DNA of 39,944 nucleotides, taken from a virus. The translations under genes and the position numbers were made by a program. How positions within the stretch are numbered: the stretch's first letter is position 1; each line of letters begins with the position of its first letter. The notes under the pieces were generated by a model that had not been told where the DNA came from, made no database searches, and saw nothing but the letters and a program-made list of their open reading frames with translations. This document shows positions 3 through 7,953 of the stretch, in pieces. The stretch lies in the UHGV virus genome UHGV-0147509, one strand, 5' to 3'.

Positions 3-1868
3 ATGGCTAAAGCATGGAAAGATGTTATCGCCTCTCCACAGTATCAGGCGTTAACTGAAGAACAGAAAGCACAGGCTCAAGCGCAATATTTTGATGAGGT
101 TGTTGCCCCTAAGGCTGGTGACAAATGGGCTGAAGCAAGAGATCAGTTTTATGCAGCATACCCTCCGCATCAGCAGCAGAAAGAAGAACCATCATTGATG
201 CAACAAGCTGGCGATTGGCTCACAGGTGGTCAAAGTGCAGGGCAAATTGCAGAGCAGGCTGGTCGCGGTCTGGTAAACATACCATTTGACGTATTGCAGG
301 GTGGCGCAAGTCTGATTAATGCAATCAGCCAGGGGCTTGGTGGCCCCAAGGTTTTGGACGATGTCTATCGTCCAGTAGATCGACCAACAGACCCTTATGC
401 GCAAGCTGGAGAAACAATTGGCGGGTATTTAGTTCCAGGAGTTGGAACGGCAGGAAGCATGGCTATTGGATCACTGGCAGAGGCCGCAAATCAGAAAGGC
501 GATTTCGCACAAAATGCAGCTAAAAATGCCGGAGTTAACCTTGCCGCTCAGGGGGTTCTTTCCGCAGCAGCAAAGGGAATAGGGCGTGGAATTACTGCTG
601 TTCGTGGCGAAATATCACCAGCAGATCAGCAATTGCTCAAGCGTGCCGCTGCGGCAGATGTACCAGTTATGACATCGGATGTAGTTCCTCCAAAAACAAA
701 ACTTGGCAATCAACTGCAGGGTTACTCAGAAGGAGTCATAGCTGGTACTGGACCAATGAGAGCCGCACAGCAGGATGCCAGAACCAAGCTTGTTAATCGC
801 TTCACCGAAAAATACGGCGACTACGATCCATCTGTAGTCGTTGATAGTCTAAAGTCAGGCGTTGCAAGGGAAAAATCGTTAGCCAAGTCAAAACTAAACA
901 GCCTGTCAGGAAGAATGGTTGGAAAGCCAGTTGATACAAGTGGCGCCATAAGAGCTATCGACGGAGCAGTAAACGAACTTGGGAAACTTAAAGGTGTTTC
1001 TGACACCCAGACCATTTCTGCGCTTAATGATTATAAGAATGCCATTCAGGAGATAACAAATGGAGATGATGCCTTTGAGTTACTTGATAAGCTGAGAACT
1101 CAGTTCCGCATTGACGTAAAAGGCGATCGTACAGTTCTGCCATCAATGTCGCAAACAATGGTCGACAGGGTCTATAACTCGCTAACCAATAGCCTTAGTA
1201 AATCTATAGCGAAAGGACTTAGCCCAAAAGATGCTTCAGCATGGAGAGCGGGAAAAGCTGATTATGCAAAAATGGCAACACATGCAACTCAAACGCGCCT
1301 TAAAAACGTTCTAAACAAAGGAGATTTAACTCCCGAGGCTGTAAATACCATTGTGTATGGACAATATGGGTCAGATATAGCTCGATTGTACGGGAAACTC
1401 GATCAAAAAGGTAAAGACATGCTAAGGGCGGCATATATCAGCAAAATAGCTGACAAGGTAGGTGACAGCCCTCAGAAAATGATGACCGAGCTTGGCAAGC
1501 TGCAAAAACAAGCAAATGGTCAGGTGTTTAAAACTGTATTTGGTGGGAAGAACGGAAAAGAGATAGAGGGGATGTTATCTATTCTCGATGCTACCAAAAG
1601 AGCATCTGAGGCTAATGTTGTGACGAAGACTGGCATGACACTCGCGCCTTTGGTAAGGGTTATTGGTAACCTAAAAACCGGAGGCGCGCTATTGGCTGGG
1701 GAAACAGGGATTGGCCTTATGTCGAGGGTTTATGAAAGCCCTATGGCCAGGAATGCGCTCTTACGTCTGGCAAACACCAAAGCAGGAACGCTAGCCTATG
1801 AAAGAGCATTAAGTAACGCTGCAAATGCCATCAGACCGCTGCTTGCCACTGAGGCAACACAGCAGTGA
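3..1868 (+). CDS. 16: DNA ejection (injection) protein, P22 gp16-like
   Basis: 621-aa ORF; ATG at 3 overlaps TAA at 1-3 (TAATG junction with the preceding gene); last member of the gp14-gp7-gp20-gp16 syntenic block that wraps around the window ends. Confidence 0.7.
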   Translation: MAKAWKDVIASPQYQALTEEQKAQAQAQYFDEVVAPKAGDKWAEARDQFYAAYPPHQQQKEEPSLMQQAGDWLTGGQSAGQIAEQAGRGLVNIPFDVLQGGASLINAISQGLGGPKVLDDVYRPVDRPTDPYAQAGETIGGYLVPGVGTAGSMAIGSLAEAANQKGDFAQNAAKNAGVNLAAQGVLSAAAKGIGRGITAVRGEISPADQQLLKRAAAADVPVMTSDVVPPKTKLGNQLQGYSEGVIAGTGPMRAAQQDARTKLVNRFTEKYGDYDPSVVVDSLKSGVAREKSLAKSKLNSLSGRMVGKPVDTSGAIRAIDGAVNELGKLKGVSDTQTISALNDYKNAIQEITNGDDAFELLDKLRTQFRIDVKGDRTVLPSMSQTMVDRVYNSLTNSLSKSIAKGLSPKDASAWRAGKADYAKMATHATQTRLKNVLNKGDLTPEAVNTIVYGQYGSDIARLYGKLDQKGKDMLRAAYISKIADKVGDSPQKMMTELGKLQKQANGQVFKTVFGGKNGKEIEGMLSILDATKRASEANVVTKTGMTLAPLVRVIGNLKTGGALLAGETGIGLMSRVYESPMARNALLRLANTKAGTLAYERALSNAANAIRPLLATEATQQ

Positions 1869-1885
1869 CTAAATGCCATGGATGG

Positions 1886-2122
1886 TTATTTCCCTAGCAC
1901 ATGAAACAATGTTTGCTTTAATTCCACCCATACAATTATGACCACTATAGACAGACAAAAGAAACTGAATGCATTGGCATCACGATCGAAACCTTCTCCG
2001 GCACTAAATCCGTAAAAGGTCATAAAAAATATAAAAATTGCGCACTTTGCAACGTTTACAAATTTTTTCTTCACACCAACCTCCTTAGTTTTCCTAGCAG
2101 TGGCACTGAGTGAATGGAACAA
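1886..2122 (-). CDS. hypothetical small membrane protein (two predicted hydrophobic helices)
   Basis: 78-aa ORF with TTG start and no clear SD; hydrophobic stretches AIFIFFMTFYGF and FFCLSIVVIIVWV; AT-rich; last ORF of the minus-strand cassette downstream of mnt. Confidence 0.35.
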   Translation of the reverse strand: MFHSLSATARKTKEVGVKKKFVNVAKCAIFIFFMTFYGFSAGEGFDRDANAFSFFCLSIVVIIVWVELKQTLFHVLGK

Positions 2123-2143
2123 GAAGATAGCTGATGAGGTGAG

Positions 2144-2593
2144 CTAAAATATATATTTAGCTATCCCTAAAAGAGCAAATCCAGTCCCTATGGTCCATAG
2201 TATTTGCTTGTTTACTGCAGTAGAGATCAATGTCTGGACTTCGCTCTTACTCGGTTTTTTTGATAATTTTTCGTCTACATCTACTATTTTTTGCAGGACC
2301 ACCGCAACATCTCTGGATGTATCAGCTGAGATATCACGCAAACGAGAGATGTCAGACCTTGCCTCAGATAGATTGGTCTTAATGTTTTCAACATCTGCCT
2401 CTAACCGTGCAACCCTAGCCTCAAGCATGTTGTTACTCCCAGCTCCACCACCACTTGATTGTAGCATGCCCATATTCATGCCAGACATTCCTGATGACTG
2501 AGAAATTGGATTTGTGTACAAAGATGATGATTTTTCCGCTTGTTCAAGCTTTTCAGTTAGATTTGGAGCTTCGTAATAATCGTGTTTCATCAT
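2144..2593 (-). CDS. hypothetical tail-anchored coiled-coil membrane protein (XhlA-like architecture)
   Basis: 149-aa ORF, ATG start 3 nt after the upstream stop; Gly/Ser/Met-rich low-complexity segment, heptad-like LEARVARLEADVENIKTNL region, C-terminal hydrophobic helix ILWTIGTGFALLGIAKYIF; AT-rich. Confidence 0.6.
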   Translation of the reverse strand: MMKHDYYEAPNLTEKLEQAEKSSSLYTNPISQSSGMSGMNMGMLQSSGGGAGSNNMLEARVARLEADVENIKTNLSEARSDISRLRDISADTSRDVAVVLQKIVDVDEKLSKKPSKSEVQTLISTAVNKQILWTIGTGFALLGIAKYIF

Positions 2594-2596
2594 TGA

Positions 2597-2866
2597 TTAC
2601 GACTCGTTTGTTTTAGCCTTATAATGTTGGTCGCGAATGAAGTCCGCCAATTTAAGCATCAATTCTTCAGGCATTCTAATGGTGGCAATATTGTACTTTA
2701 TGTTTTCAACATCACCGCTTTCATCAACAGGCCATTCAGTTACATTATGAAAAAAAGAAATTGAACCTAATCGCTGGGAACCGTCACCAAATGAAGAGTA
2801 TCCAAATGAGTCAGCATATGCATCGACACAGTTATTTGATTTTTTAACAAGCTCTTTATTACTCAT
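2597..2866 (-). CDS. hypothetical protein
   Basis: ORF 2597..2881; internal ATG at 2866 gives an 8-nt overlap with the mnt stop (ATG at 2881 would overlap mnt by 23 nt); tightly packed with mnt and the downstream ORF. Confidence 0.5.
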   Translation of the reverse strand: MSNKELVKKSNNCVDAYADSFGYSSFGDGSQRLGSISFFHNVTEWPVDESGDVENIKYNIATIRMPEELMLKLADFIRDQHYKAKTNES

Positions 2867-3116
2867 TCTTTTCTTTTCCATAAAGTTTTTTTAAAGTTTC
2901 GAATACCATATTTTTTACGATATCCGAATGTTCATCAGCCAAGCGTTCAGCTTCGTTGCGATAGCCTGCAATCGGTGATGGCTTTGAGAGAGCATCCTGA
3001 ACGATTTGTAATAACTCAGAGTTCATTGACCTTCCGTTAGCCTCGGCTCTTAATTTCAATTTTTCTCTTACTTCCAAAGGCATACGGAAGTTAAAGTGCG
3101 GATCATCTCTAGCCAT
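2859..3116 (-). CDS. mnt: Mnt repressor (ribbon-helix-helix, immI maintenance repressor)
   Basis: 85-aa protein MARDDPHFNFRMPLEVREKLKLRAEANGRSMNSELLQIVQDAL closely matches recalled P22 Mnt; divergent from arc across the Pant/Omnt region. Confidence 0.9.
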   Translation of the reverse strand: MARDDPHFNFRMPLEVREKLKLRAEANGRSMNSELLQIVQDALSKPSPIAGYRNEAERLADEHSDIVKNMVFETLKKLYGKEKNE

Positions 3117-3138
3117 GCCATCACTCCAAGTTAGTGTA

Positions 3139-3190
3139 TTGACATGATAGAAGCACTCTACTATATTCTCAATAGGTCCACGGTGGACCT
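3139..3190. promoter_or_regulatory. Pant promoter with Arc operator and Mnt operator (immI control region)
   Basis: TTGACA at 3139-3144, 17-bp spacer, TATATT at 3162-3167; ATGATAGAAGCACTCTACTAT at 3144-3164 matches the recalled P22 arc operator; perfect palindrome AGGTCCACGGTGGACCT at 3174-3190 matches the recalled mnt operator. Confidence 0.8.
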
Positions 3191-3206
3191 ATATTGTGAG
3201 GTGAAC

Positions 3207-3365
3207 ATGAAAGGAATGAGCAAAATGCCGCAGTTCAATTTGCGGTGGCCTAAAGAAGTATTGGATTTGGTGCGCAAGGTAGCTGAAGAGAACGGGCGAT
3301 CTGTTAACTCTGAGATTTACAAGCGGGTGCTGGACAGCCTGAAGAGAGAGGGGATAACGGTATGA
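3207..3365 (+). CDS. arc: Arc repressor
   Basis: MKGMSKMPQFNLRWPKEVLDLVRKVAEENGRSVNSEIY is near-identical to recalled P22 Arc; the ORF-track start at 3144 lies inside the Pant/operator region and is rejected. Confidence 0.95.
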   Translation: MKGMSKMPQFNLRWPKEVLDLVRKVAEENGRSVNSEIYKRVLDSLKREGITV

Positions 3366-3631
3366 AGGTGTCATTGCTTGATCGTTCTTTACAATTTTTG
3401 TCTGGCGCAATCATTGTAGTTTGCTTGCTCGTGATTTTTACATCGTTAATCAATATGTATCAATCAGGGGAACGATTGACAAAGACGATAGAGGAAAAGA
3501 AATCAGTCTCAAATTACGAGGTATCACATGCACATAACGATTTAGTAGAAAGCCTTGACCGTATTAACAAGAGGCTTGACGAGACAAATATGCTACTTAA
3601 GCAAATTCAAAATGAAGTGGAAAAACGTTGA
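3362..3631 (+). CDS. hypothetical membrane/coiled-coil protein inserted between arc and ant
   Basis: 89-aa ORF; ATG overlaps the arc stop (ATGA); purine-rich SD-like run upstream; N-terminal hydrophobic helix [15 protein letters not shown] followed by a charged coiled-coil-like region; AT-rich. Confidence 0.6.
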
Positions 3632-3661
3632 AGCCCCAACTGCGGGAACAGTCAGGGCTTC
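3630..3661 (-). terminator. stem-loop with U-run on the minus strand (candidate terminator of an antisense sar-like RNA)
   Basis: GAAGCCC at 3630-3636 pairs with GGGCTTC at 3655-3661; on the minus strand the stem is followed by AACGTTTTT; lies just upstream of the ant ribosome-binding site. Confidence 0.35.
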
Positions 3662-3693
3662 GGTATCAACAAATCGGATTAGGAAATATTGAC

Positions 3694-4572
3694 ATGAAAA
3701 GTATAGCAAAGGCACAAAACGATTTCACCATCTTCAAATTCGGCGACAGTGAAATCCGCGTCATCAACAAGTGCGGTGAGCCGTGGTTTGTGGCAAAAGA
3801 TGTTTGTGATGCTTTAACTCTGACTAACTCACGCAAGGCGCTTACTGCACTTGATGACGATGAAAAGGGAGTAACTTTAAGTTACACCCTTGGTGGTGAG
3901 CAGAATCTAAGCATTGTTAGCGAATCAGGTATGTATACATTGGTTCTGCGCTGCCGCGATGCTGTCAATAAAGGTTCAGTCCCGCACAAATTCCGCAAGT
4001 GGGTAACAGCAGAAGTTCTGCCTTCGATTCGCAAACATGGAGAGTATGTGAAAGGCAAGAAAACCACTGTTGAGCAAAGAACACCGCTACGCGATGCAGT
4101 AAACATGCTGGTAGGAAAGAAAGGACTTCGCTATGACGATGCATACAATATGGTTCATCAGCGTTTTGGTATTGACAGCATTGATGAACTTTCAATTGAA
4201 CAAATCCCGCTGGCCGTAGAGTACATCCACAGGGTAGTGCTTGAAGGTGAGTTCATTGGCAAACAAGAGAAGAAAACCAACGAGCTTTCTGCAAAAGAAG
4301 CAAACAGCCTTGTATGGCTATGGGATTATGCTAACCGTTCACAGGCATTATTCCGCGAACTGTATCCGGCATTAAAACAAATTCAATCGAACTATTCCGG
4401 CAGATGCTACGACTACGGTCATGAATTCTCGTATGTTATCGGAATGGCGAGAGACGTTTTAATAAACCACACACGAGATGTTGATATTAATGAGCCAGAC
4501 GGACCAACGAATCTTTCCGCATGGATGAGACTTAAGAATAAAGAATTACCTCCTTCAGTTCATAACTACTGA
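3694..4572 (+). CDS. ant: antirepressor Ant (Bro-N/KilA-N-type N-terminal domain)
   Basis: ATG at 3694 preceded by AGGAAA; [30 protein letters not shown] is a typical Bro-N motif; position after arc; the ORF track extends to a TTG at 3628. Confidence 0.7.
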
Positions 4573-4672: not shown

Positions 4673-6661
4673 ATGACAGACATTACAGCCAATGTTGTAG
4701 TGAGCATGCCTTCGCAACTCTTCACTATGGCTCGTTCTTTTAAAGCTGTAGCTAATGGCAAAATTTATATCGGTAAAATTGACACTGACCCGGTAAATCC
4801 TGAAAACCAGATTCAGGTTTATGTGGAGAACGAAGACGGTTCTCACGTTCCTGTTGCACAGCCAATCATCATTAACGCCGCTGGTTATCCTGTATATAAC
4901 GGACAGATTGCCAAATTCGTTACCGTGCAAGGCCATTCTATGGCTGTTTATGATGCGTATGGGGCGCAGCAGTTCTATTTTCCGAATGTGCTAAAGTATG
5001 ACCCGGATCAGTTAAGAACCGAACTATCTATTAACGGTGGTGCCGGATTAGTTGGCGCAGGAGTTATATCTAGAGGTAATGATAAGTTTTCAATAATGCA
5101 GGGCAGGACATCAGAGTATTTAAATGATGGTCTTACATACGGTATTGGTATCATTATTAATGATTCAATTGTTGGTTCTGTTCCTAATGCAAGCACAGCT
5201 AAAATAAACTATATCATGATTAATGATGACAGAATTAATGCTGTTGATGACCAATCGGCAGGCACAAAAGTTGACGGGTTTTTAGTTCACCATAATTTCG
5301 GATATCAAGAAGCAAAAGGTGGCAGACACGCCGGAGAGTTTGTTTTAACTCACGAAGCAGCCACAAACTTAGAAAATCCTGATAGAAATTATGTTGGTGT
5401 TGTTGGTCTTGCGGTTTCACAAAATGGTGATGGTGGAACGATATCATCATTACCTGGTACATTCAAAGGAGCATATTTTGGCGGAAATATGTATGGACGC
5501 CTGGATTCTGCTGCGGTTGGAGTTTATAACGTTACAGGGTGTGAGTTTAATGTTTCCGCGTTAGTAGGTTCATCTGTATGGTATCGATCAGGTATTCAGA
5601 TTGTCGGTGGTGGTGATGTTCGAGGTACTGCTGTAGATACTGGTATTGCCTTATCAAACCTTTCTACTTCAACCGTTCGCTGGAAAAACGCTATTCGCAT
5701 AGGCAACATGAATGGGGGGCACGCCCTAGGAGGAGATAGTAAAATACTTGTTGCATTTACAGATGTGCCATCCATAACATCAGGATTCGAGATACCAAAA
5801 TGCTCATCAATGATATTGATGTCAGGTGACGTTACTTTACAAAATAGTAAATTGAATATCGCATCTGTTGGCTCATCTATTGAACTTGGTAGTACAACAG
5901 ATTCCGGTGTTTCATATATTGACTTTCACTCAAGCGGAAATAATGTTGATAACGATGGAAGGATTTTCTGTTCTGGTGGTTCTGAAGATTCTGGTGATGG
6001 GACTATTGGATTTAATTCTTCAATCATTCAACTTAACTCAAAAACAGAAATAGTCATGGGGTCTGGCATTAGACCATCTCTTGACAACACCTATGATTAT
6101 GGAACAGCTTCCAAAAGAGGAAGAACAGCGTATTTTGGTACCGGGTCAATTAATACATCTGACTCTCGCCATAAACCAATCAAAGAAAAAATACCAGAAT
6201 ATATTCTTGACGCGTGGTCAGAAGTAGACTGGGGGACATGGTTTAAATTTGATGACGCAATAGCGATAAAAGGAGAAGATGGTGCGAGATGGCACTTTGG
6301 ACTGATTGCGCAGCGTGTTGAAAAAGTTTTTTCATCACATGGAATAGATGGATTTAAGCTTGGCTTGCTATGTTATGACTCATGGGATGACGTTTACGTT
6401 GATGTGCAGACAAATATAGGGGAGGTGGTAAAAAAAACAAGAGAAACGAGCGATGGAAATACAGAAGAATATACTGAACCTGCCCCTGCAAAATTTAAAA
6501 AGGTTCTTGATACACCAGCTGGTGAAAGATACGGAATTCGTTATGAGGAGGCCTTGTCTCTCGAGGCTGCATTACAACGGCGTAACTACTTTCGTTTGCT
6601 GGAGAAACAAAAAGAGTTAGTTATGCGTATTGAGAAAATAGAGGGTATACTTGGAATGTAA
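4673..6661 (+). CDS. tailspike protein (P22 gp9-like head-binding N-terminus, divergent receptor domain, C-terminal intramolecular chaperone-like domain)
   Basis: N-terminus [43 protein letters not shown] closely matches recalled P22 gp9 head-binding domain; C-terminal region with SDSRHK motif resembles peptidase S74 auto-cleaving chaperone domains; SD GGAG upstream. Confidence 0.85.
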
Positions 6662-6795
6662 ATTTTATATATCACAGTATATCTAGACACATTATGTGTC
6701 ACTTACCTATATGAATGGCGTGGCAACAAAAACTGTGGCATATAAGCTTTGCACTGGATTGCAAGGCTTTGTGCTATTCGATAGTTTAAGGTCGC

Positions 6796-7953
6796 TCACT
6801 CTACCTTTTCATCAAGCCAGTCCGCCCACCATTGCATCATTTCTCTGCGTTTATCGAGATACTGAGCATGGTTGTAAATCCCACGCACAGATCCGCCGTT
6901 GGCATGTGCCAGTTGCACTTCAATGGCGTCAGCAGGCCATTCGTGCTCGTTCATAATTGTGCTGAATTCATGCCTGAATCCGTGACCGCTTTCCAGACCC
7001 TCATAGCCGATTTGTTTGATCACAAGCAATACCGCGTTCTCGCAGATTGGCTTCTTCTTATCGTTGCGCCCGGCAAAAACAAACTCTGATACTGGTTTAG
7101 TGATGGAGCTTAGCGTAATGAGAAGTTCAACTACCTGGTCTGACATAGGAACCACATGAATTTTGCGTCCCTTCATCACATTGGCGTCGATGGTGATAAT
7201 CCTGTTTTCAAAATCGACGTTCTTCCATTGCATGGAACGAAGCTCTTTCGTTCTTAGGGCTGTGTAGCGTAAAACTTTGGTCGCAATGAGCGATACGATA
7301 CTTCCTGAAAATGTTGCCAGTGCTTTGTTGAATGCCGGGATCTGGTCTGCAGGAAGAAACGGGAAGTTCTTCTTGCGGTATCCCTTCATGGCGTCAGCAA
7401 GGTCAGGTGCCGGGTTATATTTAGCCCTTCCGGTGACAATAGCGTAACGGAAAACCTCTCCGCATCTTCTGCGTGCTTTGTTGGCTCGCTCCATTGCACC
7501 GCGATCTTCAAATCTGCGGATTACTTCCAGCAGTTGCATCGGCTCAATATCCTGAATTTCAAGGCCGCCGATGATAGGTAAAATGTCGTCATCAAACATT
7601 TTTGCAAGTTCATTTGCATATCCTACTGACCAGACTTGCTTCTTGTGCTCGTACCATTCCTTGTAAATGGCGCTAAAGGAATTGTTGTTAGACGAAGCCT
7701 TTTTCGCCTTTACCGGATCGATGCCGACTGAGATCTCTTTCCTCGCAGTCCATGCTTTATCCCTTGCCTCCTGCAAAGTCATAAGCGGATATTTTCCGAC
7801 GGTCAGGATTTTCTCCTTACCGTCAATCTTGTAGCGAAGCTGCCAGACCTTTTTTCCGGATACAGGGACATAAAGGTACAGGCCATTACCATCGAGAAGG
7901 CGGTATGGTTTTTCTTTCGGCTTTGCTGCTTCAATCTGCTTAACGGTGAGCAT
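6796..7953 (-). CDS. int: tyrosine integrase, P4 family
   Basis: N-terminus MLTVKQIEAAKPKEKPYRLLDGNGLYLYV is a typical P4-type arm-binding region; C-terminal HGFRHEF and RGIYNHAQY catalytic motifs; ATG at 7953 preferred over the upstream GTG at 7989. Confidence 0.9.
   Translation of the reverse strand: MLTVKQIEAAKPKEKPYRLLDGNGLYLYVPVSGKKVWQLRYKIDGKEKILTVGKYPLMTLQEARDKAWTARKEISVGIDPVKAKKASSNNNSFSAIYKEWYEHKKQVWSVGYANELAKMFDDDILPIIGGLEIQDIEPMQLLEVIRRFEDRGAMERANKARRRCGEVFRYAIVTGRAKYNPAPDLADAMKGYRKKNFPFLPADQIPAFNKALATFSGSIVSLIATKVLRYTALRTKELRSMQWKNVDFENRIITIDANVMKGRKIHVVPMSDQVVELLITLSSITKPVSEFVFAGRNDKKKPICENAVLLVIKQIGYEGLESGHGFRHEFSTIMNEHEWPADAIEVQLAHANGGSVRGIYNHAQYLDKRREMMQWWADWLDEKVE

Follow-up and report, generated by a model that had tools for sequence, protein, structure and literature searches.

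The 39,944-nucleotide (nt) stretch of DNA analysed here (UHGV virus genome UHGV-0147509, hereafter the window) is a complete P22-like (Lederbergvirus) genome. Its interval from gene 16 to mnt carries three minus-strand genes, which we call orfA, orfB and orfC. orfA and orfB belong to a so far uncharacterised family of gene pairs, found in temperate enterobacterial phages, that joins a small soluble protein to a predicted membrane-anchored coiled-coil protein. The pair is very probably a repressor-linked accessory unit of temperate phages that is expressed in lysogeny. From its genomic context, we tentatively favour, at slightly less than an even chance, a lysogen-expressed, Rex-like phage-exclusion module of the abortive-infection type with swappable sensors. 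orfC is independent of this mobile pair and stands at the end of the operon in one P22-like sublineage. The locus is best read as two separate lysogenic-conversion units stacked on a presumed leftward mnt transcript of a P22-like prophage.

orfA (2597..2866, minus strand) encodes the 89-amino-acid (aa) soluble partner protein. The open reading frame (ORF) can also be extended to 94 aa (2597..2881). The shorter version is backed by an identical 270-nt coding sequence (CDS) in PGAP, by PHROG 4231 (at 2.9e-52) and by nine homologues, which share 60-77% identity and 30 invariant columns. From the 89-aa start, the ATG overlaps the mnt stop by 8 nt (ATGAGTAA), and orfA is probably translationally coupled to mnt. 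A hydropathy scan finds no hydrophobic segment in the protein. Its AlphaFold2 model consists of three long beta strands and a C-terminal helix, with a predicted local distance difference test score (pLDDT) of 78. orfB begins 3 nt past the orfA stop. An earlier reading of this region, made from the letters of the window (the sequence-only reading), had proposed a soluble protein of about 89 aa with the same 8-nt overlap and 3-nt gap, and all three hold, the overlap for the 89-aa start.

orfB (2144..2593, minus strand) is the conserved component of the family and encodes a 149-aa protein (PHROG 3556 at 7.9e-59). Residues 1-55 (2429..2593) comprise a variable N-terminal peptide (MMKHDYYEAPNL...) and a Gly/Ser/Met-rich linker. 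They are followed by the conserved coiled-coil core at residues 56-113 (MLEARVARLEADVENIKTNLSEAR ... DVAVVLQKIVDVDEKLSKK; 2255..2428), in which the invariant and near-invariant columns are concentrated. Residues 131-149 (ILWTIGTGFALLGIAKYIF; 2147..2203) form a C-terminal hydrophobic helix, the putative tail anchor, which runs up to the stop codon. The AlphaFold2 model has a short N-terminal helix, a disordered Gly/Ser/Met stretch at 26-50 (pLDDT below 50), a single helix at 54-111 (pLDDT 76-87) and a C-terminal helix at 116-148. In the window protein the C-terminal 19-mer is marginally hydrophobic, with a Kyte-Doolittle mean of 1.57 against the usual 19-mer cut-off of 1.6 for a hydrophobic segment. 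In 51 of 55 family members, the C-terminal 19-mer lies at or above 1.6 and no other part of the protein does. The model and the family hydropathy uphold the tail-anchored coiled-coil protein with a Gly/Ser/Met linker that had been read earlier; its description as XhlA-like does not carry beyond architecture, and the hits are below threshold. A protein of E. coli (P0012, 134 aa) is a natural in-frame join of about 64 N-terminal residues of orfA to about 84 C-terminal residues of orfB, and is probably a deletion derivative of the pair.

At 90% identity, orfB has relatives in 57 clusters, every one of them annotated as hypothetical and lacking a Pfam domain; most come from Enterobacterales. An exhaustive HMMER profile search returned 88 representatives (50%-identity clusters) at E<1e-10. 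The window orfB served as the reference sequence of the family alignments A1 and A2, and 98 related loci were fetched from genome and viral collections for neighbourhood analysis. The family layout consists of a freely varying N-terminal segment of 25-75 residues, a Gly-rich linker (GGGNGGGGD-like), a highly conserved core (MLEARVAKLEADVENIKTNLSEAR ... DVAVILQK.VDIDEKLSKKPS) and a C-terminal hydrophobic helix, of which there are at least five unrelated sequence types. Differences in coiled-coil length give proteins of 93-295 aa. The window orfB fits this definition, including the coiled-coil pattern M-L-E-x-R-V-A-x-L-E-x-D-V-x-x-I-K and a small partner gene immediately upstream. HK544c103, the homologue in phage HK544, matches the orfB profile over the coiled-coil part (hhalign probability 99.5%, E 5.6e-23). 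Copies of the exact orfB protein are present on 739 public contigs, the ECs2992 type turns up on at least 1000, and the names in public annotation are 'hypothetical protein' or 'membrane protein'.

Among the 98 loci, a small same-strand partner gene almost always lies just before the orfB homologue, and the two are separated by -56 to +20 nt in nearly every case. One apparent exception (L050) has a partner gene of the c9 family that an ORF filter had initially overlooked. The partners belong to the families c4 (87-113 aa, including orfA), c5 (132-187 aa, beta-rich), c9 (109-132 aa, with four invariant Cys arranged as CxxC...CxxC) and c106 (93-97 aa, as in HK544). No homology was detected by hhalign between c4 and c5, c9 or c106, and the partner families match nothing in Pfam, PADLOC or the PDB sequences. 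The type of orfB N-terminal peptide tracks the partner family, and the type of anchor assorts independently. Every c4 pair carries an MKHDYYEAPNL... peptide and many c9 pairs an ...NV(V/I)PF... peptide. By megablast, the window and the lambdoid prophages of E. coli O26 share 84% nucleotide identity over 2421-2892 only, a match that spans orfA and the first ~57 codons of orfB and ends at the conserved core. A match that stops at the core would be expected of recombination within the core that swaps a partner and its peptide as a unit.

The pair directly follows a lysogeny repressor (cI-type S24 or short helix-turn-helix protein, or Mnt) in 36 of the 55 distinct members and at 69 of 94 loci. Repressor-linked pairs are usually divergent from cro and a cII/YdaT-type gene. 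The annotated immunity region of HK544 reads pRM, cI, HK544c104 (93 aa), HK544c103 (183 aa), tImm, oL/pL and N. Stx1 phage VT1-Sakai has cI, a gap, H0053 (= ECs2992) and then an annotated 'terminator for pRM transcript', and in E. coli O26 prophages the order is cI, the pair and a tImm-type terminator. A tImm-like hairpin (CCCGGCC...GCCGGG followed by a T-run) lies within about 105 nt past the orfB homologue in 28 of 35 distinct cI-linked loci; it was found in none of the four distinct mnt-linked loci. Homologous pairs thus follow cI immediately, inside an annotated PRM-tImm unit in HK544 and VT1-Sakai, which strengthens the window pair as a candidate for exclusion expressed in lysogens. In the window itself the neighbouring repressor is Mnt, the maintenance repressor of the immI region, and orfA, orfB and orfC are plausibly all expressed from the prophage. 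The interval between cI and N is a hotspot of mosaicism in which rexAB and bstA are found, and in lysogens it is strongly transcribed from one of the most active prophage promoters (PMC8585504).

The sequence-only reading had treated the three genes as one cassette. This is contradicted by their distribution, as orfC and orfA/orfB each occur apart. orfC is best read as a 62-aa protein with a GTG start (1886..2074, minus strand), supported by PHROG 21338 (at 4.1e-45, over exactly 62 positions), by a PGAP CDS (WP_000726292) and by 62-aa homologues in Salmonella and Serratia with about 80% identity. Its GTG at 2074 stands 5 nt after the Shine-Dalgarno sequence TAAGGAGG, a strong ribosome-binding site. 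A TTG start would give 78 aa (1886..2122) and the 21-nt gap to orfB reported earlier. Because the GTG is the better start, the true orfB-orfC spacer is 69 nt (2075..2143, minus strand), and it holds the TAAGGAGG sequence. No promoter or terminator was predicted in a scan of the spacer. The orfC stop lies 17 nt away from the convergent stop of gene 16. Two hydrophobic segments, predicted as transmembrane helices, agree with the small two-helix membrane protein proposed from the letters; its comparison to a holin had come from size and finds no further support.

Escherichia phages JEP4 and phiv205-1 have orfC-only DNA with 99-100% identity directly after gene 16. The similarity ends at window position 2092, 18 nt upstream of the GTG, and the 69-nt spacer forms the recombination boundary of the orfC unit. 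orfC was found in 90 of 5,426 complete E. coli genomes, with orfB alongside in just four and without orfA/orfB in about 86. The orfA/orfB pair resides mostly in lambdoid prophages that have no orfC. Homologues of orfC at ~81% identity always abut the convergent gene 16 and lie behind quite different upstream genes. In Salmonella P22-like prophages this gene encodes a 161-aa lipoprotein (MKKSLLIIPLLLAGC...; L118-L121:3483-3968). Serratia-type P22-like prophages have a Rap1a-like (PF18602) periplasmic protein with a signal peptide (L122:3644-3991, L123:3644-3991, L124:3643-3999). A secreted 129-aa protein (L037-L039:~6520-6909) adjoins the same spacer in three further loci, a C2-like repressor is found in JEP4 and a truncated arc in E. 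coli 730V1. The presence of orfC without orfA/orfB and behind such varied genes argues that it is an independent gene at the end of the operon. The interval between gene 16 and mnt is a hotspot of morons directed at the envelope, in which orfC is the constant last gene.

Several of these upstream genes deserve comment in their own right. The 161-aa Salmonella gene was considered as a SieA and rejected, being a lipoprotein without SieA similarity. The Rap1a-like family comprises immunity proteins of type VI secretion. Because such a protein occupies the slot between mnt and orfC, Serratia-type prophages may carry an orphan type VI secretion immunity gene as cargo. In JEP4 (L004:4266-4835) the immI region has been rebuilt, with Rha- and KilA-type genes on the opposite strand past the C2-like repressor and mnt moved beside the tailspike gene. 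The C2-like repressor lies directly upstream of orfC, which therefore again stands downstream of a repressor.

In the exclusion model for orfA/orfB, the pair would be made in lysogens on the repressor transcript. The orfB protein would be tail-anchored with its N terminus inside and its bulk in the cytoplasm, because it has no signal sequence and no other hydrophobic segment and because its partners, including a Zn-ribbon type, look cytoplasmic. The partners are assigned to the cytoplasm because c9 has the CxxC...CxxC cysteines and because none of the partners inspected has an N-terminal hydrophobic signal sequence. The small partner may dock on the N-terminal peptide of orfB, held by the flexible linker, and act as a specificity or sensor subunit, with the membrane-anchored coiled coil as effector or platform. 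The complex would abort or exclude a superinfecting phage, and the sensor would be exchanged by recombination within the conserved core. An arms-race sensor fits this arrangement because the hypervariable specificity end sits on a conserved core. A broader form of the model is possible, and we hold it with somewhat less conviction: a new and widespread abortive-infection or exclusion family, in which a tail-anchored coiled-coil effector displays a docking peptide for unrelated swappable sensors. Such a family would have entered the rexAB slot repeatedly, with carriers that include HK544, a phage of lambda immunity, and the Stx1 prophages of E. coli O157:H7 Sakai and EDL933; in P22-like phages it would have been taken into the mnt operon.

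The closest known parallel is lambda RexAB. In relatives of the window pair, a two-gene unit occupies the identical slot, after cI and before tImm and pL/N, and both systems pair a soluble with a membrane protein, the soluble gene first. As with rexAB, expression of the pair in lysogens is presumably driven by the repressor promoter (PMC8585504). However, orfA and orfB show no homology to RexAB at threshold in Pfam, NCBIfam or PADLOC, and a PDB search with the orfA/orfB alignments found no sequence relative although a RexA structure exists. The window pair follows mnt rather than cI. RexB is polytopic and channel-like, with four helices, and RexAB excludes T4 rII and others with membrane depolarisation. 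Throughout its family, orfB has just one hydrophobic helix, at the C terminus, along with a long coiled coil. The soluble partner is much smaller than RexA (87-187 aa) and comes from at least four unrelated families. BstA of phage BTP1, an abortive-infection protein encoded downstream of cI, shares the same repressor-downstream hotspot in temperate phages of Salmonella and E. coli, and the linkage of bstA to the repressor locus is strikingly conserved (PMC8585504). In contrast to the pair, BstA is one large protein, soluble and associated with DNA, that comes with an aba self-immunity element, and there is no homology or shared architecture.

Several points weigh against the exclusion model. 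The defence assignment comes from position and the pattern of variation, because scans of orfA, orfB, orfC, the alternative partners and the ORF at 3362-3631 (see below) gave no match at threshold in Pfam, NCBIfam or PADLOC. Across these libraries and PHROGs, the same proteins returned function-unknown PHROGs plus sub-threshold coiled-coil matches, and PDB sequence-profile searches with all four alignments found nothing significant. A literature search under locus tags, accession numbers, UPF_BP1, HK544 and tail-anchored phage defence yielded no functional study of a family member. The repressor-downstream slot also hosts cargo other than defence genes, and RexA of lambda itself takes part in the switch between lysis and lysogeny. 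The single, weakly hydrophobic C-terminal helix is no obvious pore former. In the window no terminator or promoter was predicted around the pair, and co-transcription with mnt is read from the gene overlap. Finally, 19 of the 55 members are not adjacent to a repressor, for example those among tail and baseplate genes in Photorhabdus and in Salmonella phage 29485.

The alternative that survives best, although unlikely, is a regulatory or physiological accessory. Such a unit would bias the lysis-lysogeny switch or induction in the manner of RexA, or serve as a tail-anchored stress or tethering factor similar to ElaB and YqjD, to the advantage of the lysogen. The pair lies in one operon with the repressor governing the switch, and the tail-anchored, cytoplasmic helical design with a stalk of variable length (93-295 aa) suggests a tether or spacer. 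ElaB, YqjD and YgaM (DUF883) are chromosomal stress proteins with a cytoplasmic helical domain and a C-terminal anchor that ends in a few, often basic, residues. orfB is predicted to share the layout of helical domain and anchor, but those proteins lack the partner gene and the Gly-linker/peptide module. In Pfam, orfB matches neither DUF883/ElaB nor any regulator, and the fold matches are marginal. Interchangeable, unrelated partners and hypervariable docking peptides also agree more closely with a sensor in an arms race than with a housekeeping regulator.

Exclusion of the SieA type is somewhat less probable still. It holds that the genes replace sieA and block the delivery of P22-like DNA at the inner membrane by disturbing the gp16/gp20 conduit, chiefly by means of orfC. 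The location between gene 16 and mnt/gene 9 of a P22-like genome is that of sieA, although position alone does not define the SieA family. Both cases also involve prophage-side membrane proteins, predicted ones here. orfC, as a small membrane protein confined to P22-like prophages and always abutting gene 16, is in keeping with such a function. SieA itself, a multi-helix protein of ~160 aa, carries the motif FxRYPxEAxxFNK, conserved in the P22/HS1 proteins, is transcribed from a promoter of its own and acts specifically on P22-like phages; it is expressed from the prophage at the P22 locus and is present in just 22 of 66 P22-like phages (PMC10883804). Against P22 SieA, the best BLASTP E value for orfA, orfB and orfC was 0.5, with no similarity to SieA or orf59a, and the motif, present in SieA, is missing from all three, which bears out the earlier impression that nothing here resembles SieA. 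SieA is polytopic (~160-200 aa), whereas orfA has no hydrophobic segment, orfB one marginal segment and orfC two in 62 aa. Most members of the orfA/orfB family lie outside P22-like phages, in lambdoid and other prophages beside cI, and orfB has no predicted periplasmic domain and partners that look cytoplasmic. The sieA position noted in the sequence-only reading is therefore accurate as a location and incidental for orfA/orfB, whose conserved neighbour is the lysogeny repressor. By its location, orfC is a better candidate than orfA/orfB for a P22-specific role similar to SieA or Imm, on grounds of location and size.

A toxin-antidote (addiction) pair is improbable. Here a membrane toxin (orfB) would be restrained by its cognate small protein and would stabilise the prophage. 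The tight coupling of the two genes, with the partner always first, and the pairing of a membrane-active component with a small cognate protein are as expected of such a system. However, no toxin-antidote family is matched in Pfam, NCBIfam or PADLOC, the genes sit at the repressor rather than at typical sites for such pairs, and conservation lies in the coiled coil rather than in the hydrophobic segment. This alternative overlaps the abortive-infection model and is not exclusive of it.

An accessory role in lysis, akin to XhlA, a holin or releasin and exerted at the end of the lytic cycle, is very improbable, as the genes lie on the strand and presumed transcript of the repressor and no lysis-cassette setting was found among the 98 loci. 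The neighbours in these loci are repressors, cro, cII or tail-region morons, and UPF_BP1, a phage nearly identical to the window in this region, has its own holin, endolysin and spanin annotated elsewhere. The idea derives from XhlA (PF10779) of the PBSX-type lysis cassettes of Bacillus, in which a coiled coil is likewise followed by a single C-terminal membrane helix; the likeness is one of architecture. The window orfB has no XhlA match at E<=1. Among 38 close relatives, 11 have sub-threshold XhlA matches (best E 0.008), as do 16 among 103 distant relatives (best E 1e-4), but generic coiled coils (FlaC, Lpp) score equal to or above XhlA in orfB relatives. PHROG 937 ('hemolysin') matches orfB at E 0.002. 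XhlA has neither the Gly-rich linker nor the variable N-terminal peptide, and it lies beside holin and endolysin and is expressed late, whereas the orfB family lies beside repressors. Matches to DUF2730 (PF10805) are likewise below threshold (6 of 38 members, best E 0.0023). Releasin (Mu gp25) has an N-terminal transmembrane domain, an N-out/C-in topology and a location within five genes of the endolysin (PMC9239132). The DUF2730/Mu releasin lead was rejected, since the orfB helix is C-terminal, the opposite topology, and the context is not that of lysis. orfC is of holin size, yet it matches no holin family in Pfam, NCBIfam or PADLOC and is found on the mnt strand adjoining gene 16 in every locus seen.

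Prophage moron pairs in the repressor operon with a likely exclusion function are known; the present architecture and the plug-in partner design are undescribed. If the orfA/orfB pair is an exclusion system, it would be a mechanistically distinct family of prophage immunity, a single-helix anchored coiled coil with plug-in sensors, in the most classical of locations. Its carriers include the medically important Stx1 and O26 prophages as well as common P22-like prophages of Salmonella and E. coli. The pair offers a tractable case of sensor specificity exchanged by recombination within a conserved core, and it may partly account for the absence of sieA from two thirds of P22-like phages. Once the cassette is divided in two, orfC stands out as a separate small membrane protein, specific to the P22 lineage, that is a candidate for blocking injection. 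Should the pair have no anti-phage phenotype, it would still represent a conserved, repressor-linked function of lysogens.

The members of the family that are not linked to a repressor are inserts among tail or baseplate genes, alongside moron-like genes (Ant-like proteins, lipoproteins). In Photorhabdus (L013, L020, L025 and L026, ~5400-6400), c5-type pairs lie between Mu-type tail genes, after a gp44-like gene and before gp45/46/47-like baseplate genes, and are preceded by a small signal-peptide protein. In some of the orfB homologues of Photorhabdus the coiled coil is far longer and shows 11-residue repeats, with proteins of up to 295 aa. Placement of these copies in the P2 Z/fun defence hotspot was rejected; because the neighbours are Mu-type tape-measure and baseplate genes, they are read as plain moron insertions. 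Salmonella phage 29485 (L116:2408-4622; also S107, S135 and S137) has a c9-type pair in a siphovirus moron cluster between the tail chaperone and the tape measure. This cluster also holds an Ant-like protein, a lipoprotein and a small secreted protein.

The setting of the three genes in the window is that of a P22-like immI region. The local order is gene 16 (plus strand), the three minus-strand ORFs, mnt, arc, an additional 89-aa ORF, the sar RNA, ant and the tailspike gene. Over positions 1800-3200, identity is 98.9% with Salmonella phage UPF_BP1 and 99.8% with E. coli prophages. The GC content of the genes between gene 16 and mnt is 38.4%, compared with 46.7% for the window, and is lower in merely 0.3% of 996-nt segments. 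The coordinates and the low GC both confirm the three AT-rich ORFs, co-oriented with mnt, that had been described here. Gene 16 (3..1868, plus strand), which encodes an ejection protein, is the convergent neighbour and the right-hand limit of the virion gene block; Pfam Phage_P22_gp16 is found on the equivalent gene in related loci. mnt (2859..3116, minus strand) is the first gene of the leftward unit and encodes the maintenance-of-lysogeny repressor (Pfam Arc 1.4e-27, Repressor_Mnt 3e-16), with 85% identity to P22 Mnt. A consensus scan predicts a Pmnt-like sigma-70 promoter (TTGAGA-17-TATCAT) at 3144..3172 on the minus strand. It overlaps a predicted, divergent Pant-like promoter (3139-3167, plus strand), and this layout is that of the annotated P22 Pmnt/Pant of immI.

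The additional 89-aa ORF (3362-3631, plus strand; PHROG 27312), between arc and sar/ant, encodes a coiled-coil protein that has a hydrophobic helix at its N terminus. The ORF overlaps the arc stop at its start and reaches into the sar terminator at its end, and it would be transcribed from Pant together with arc and ant, on the lytic side. The ORF is missing from P22 and UPF_BP1, where the gap between arc and ant is ~68 nt, and is found in an E. coli prophage. A Salmonella prophage without orfA/orfB has an 89-aa gene with no Pfam match at the same position between arc and ant; the likeness is one of position. The sar antisense RNA lies at 3626-3692 on the minus strand (Rfam RF00262, 67.8 bits, E 7e-13). 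It agrees with a predicted minus-strand promoter (3728-3700) and with a 14-bp terminator hairpin (3661-3630), which overlaps the ant start at 3694.

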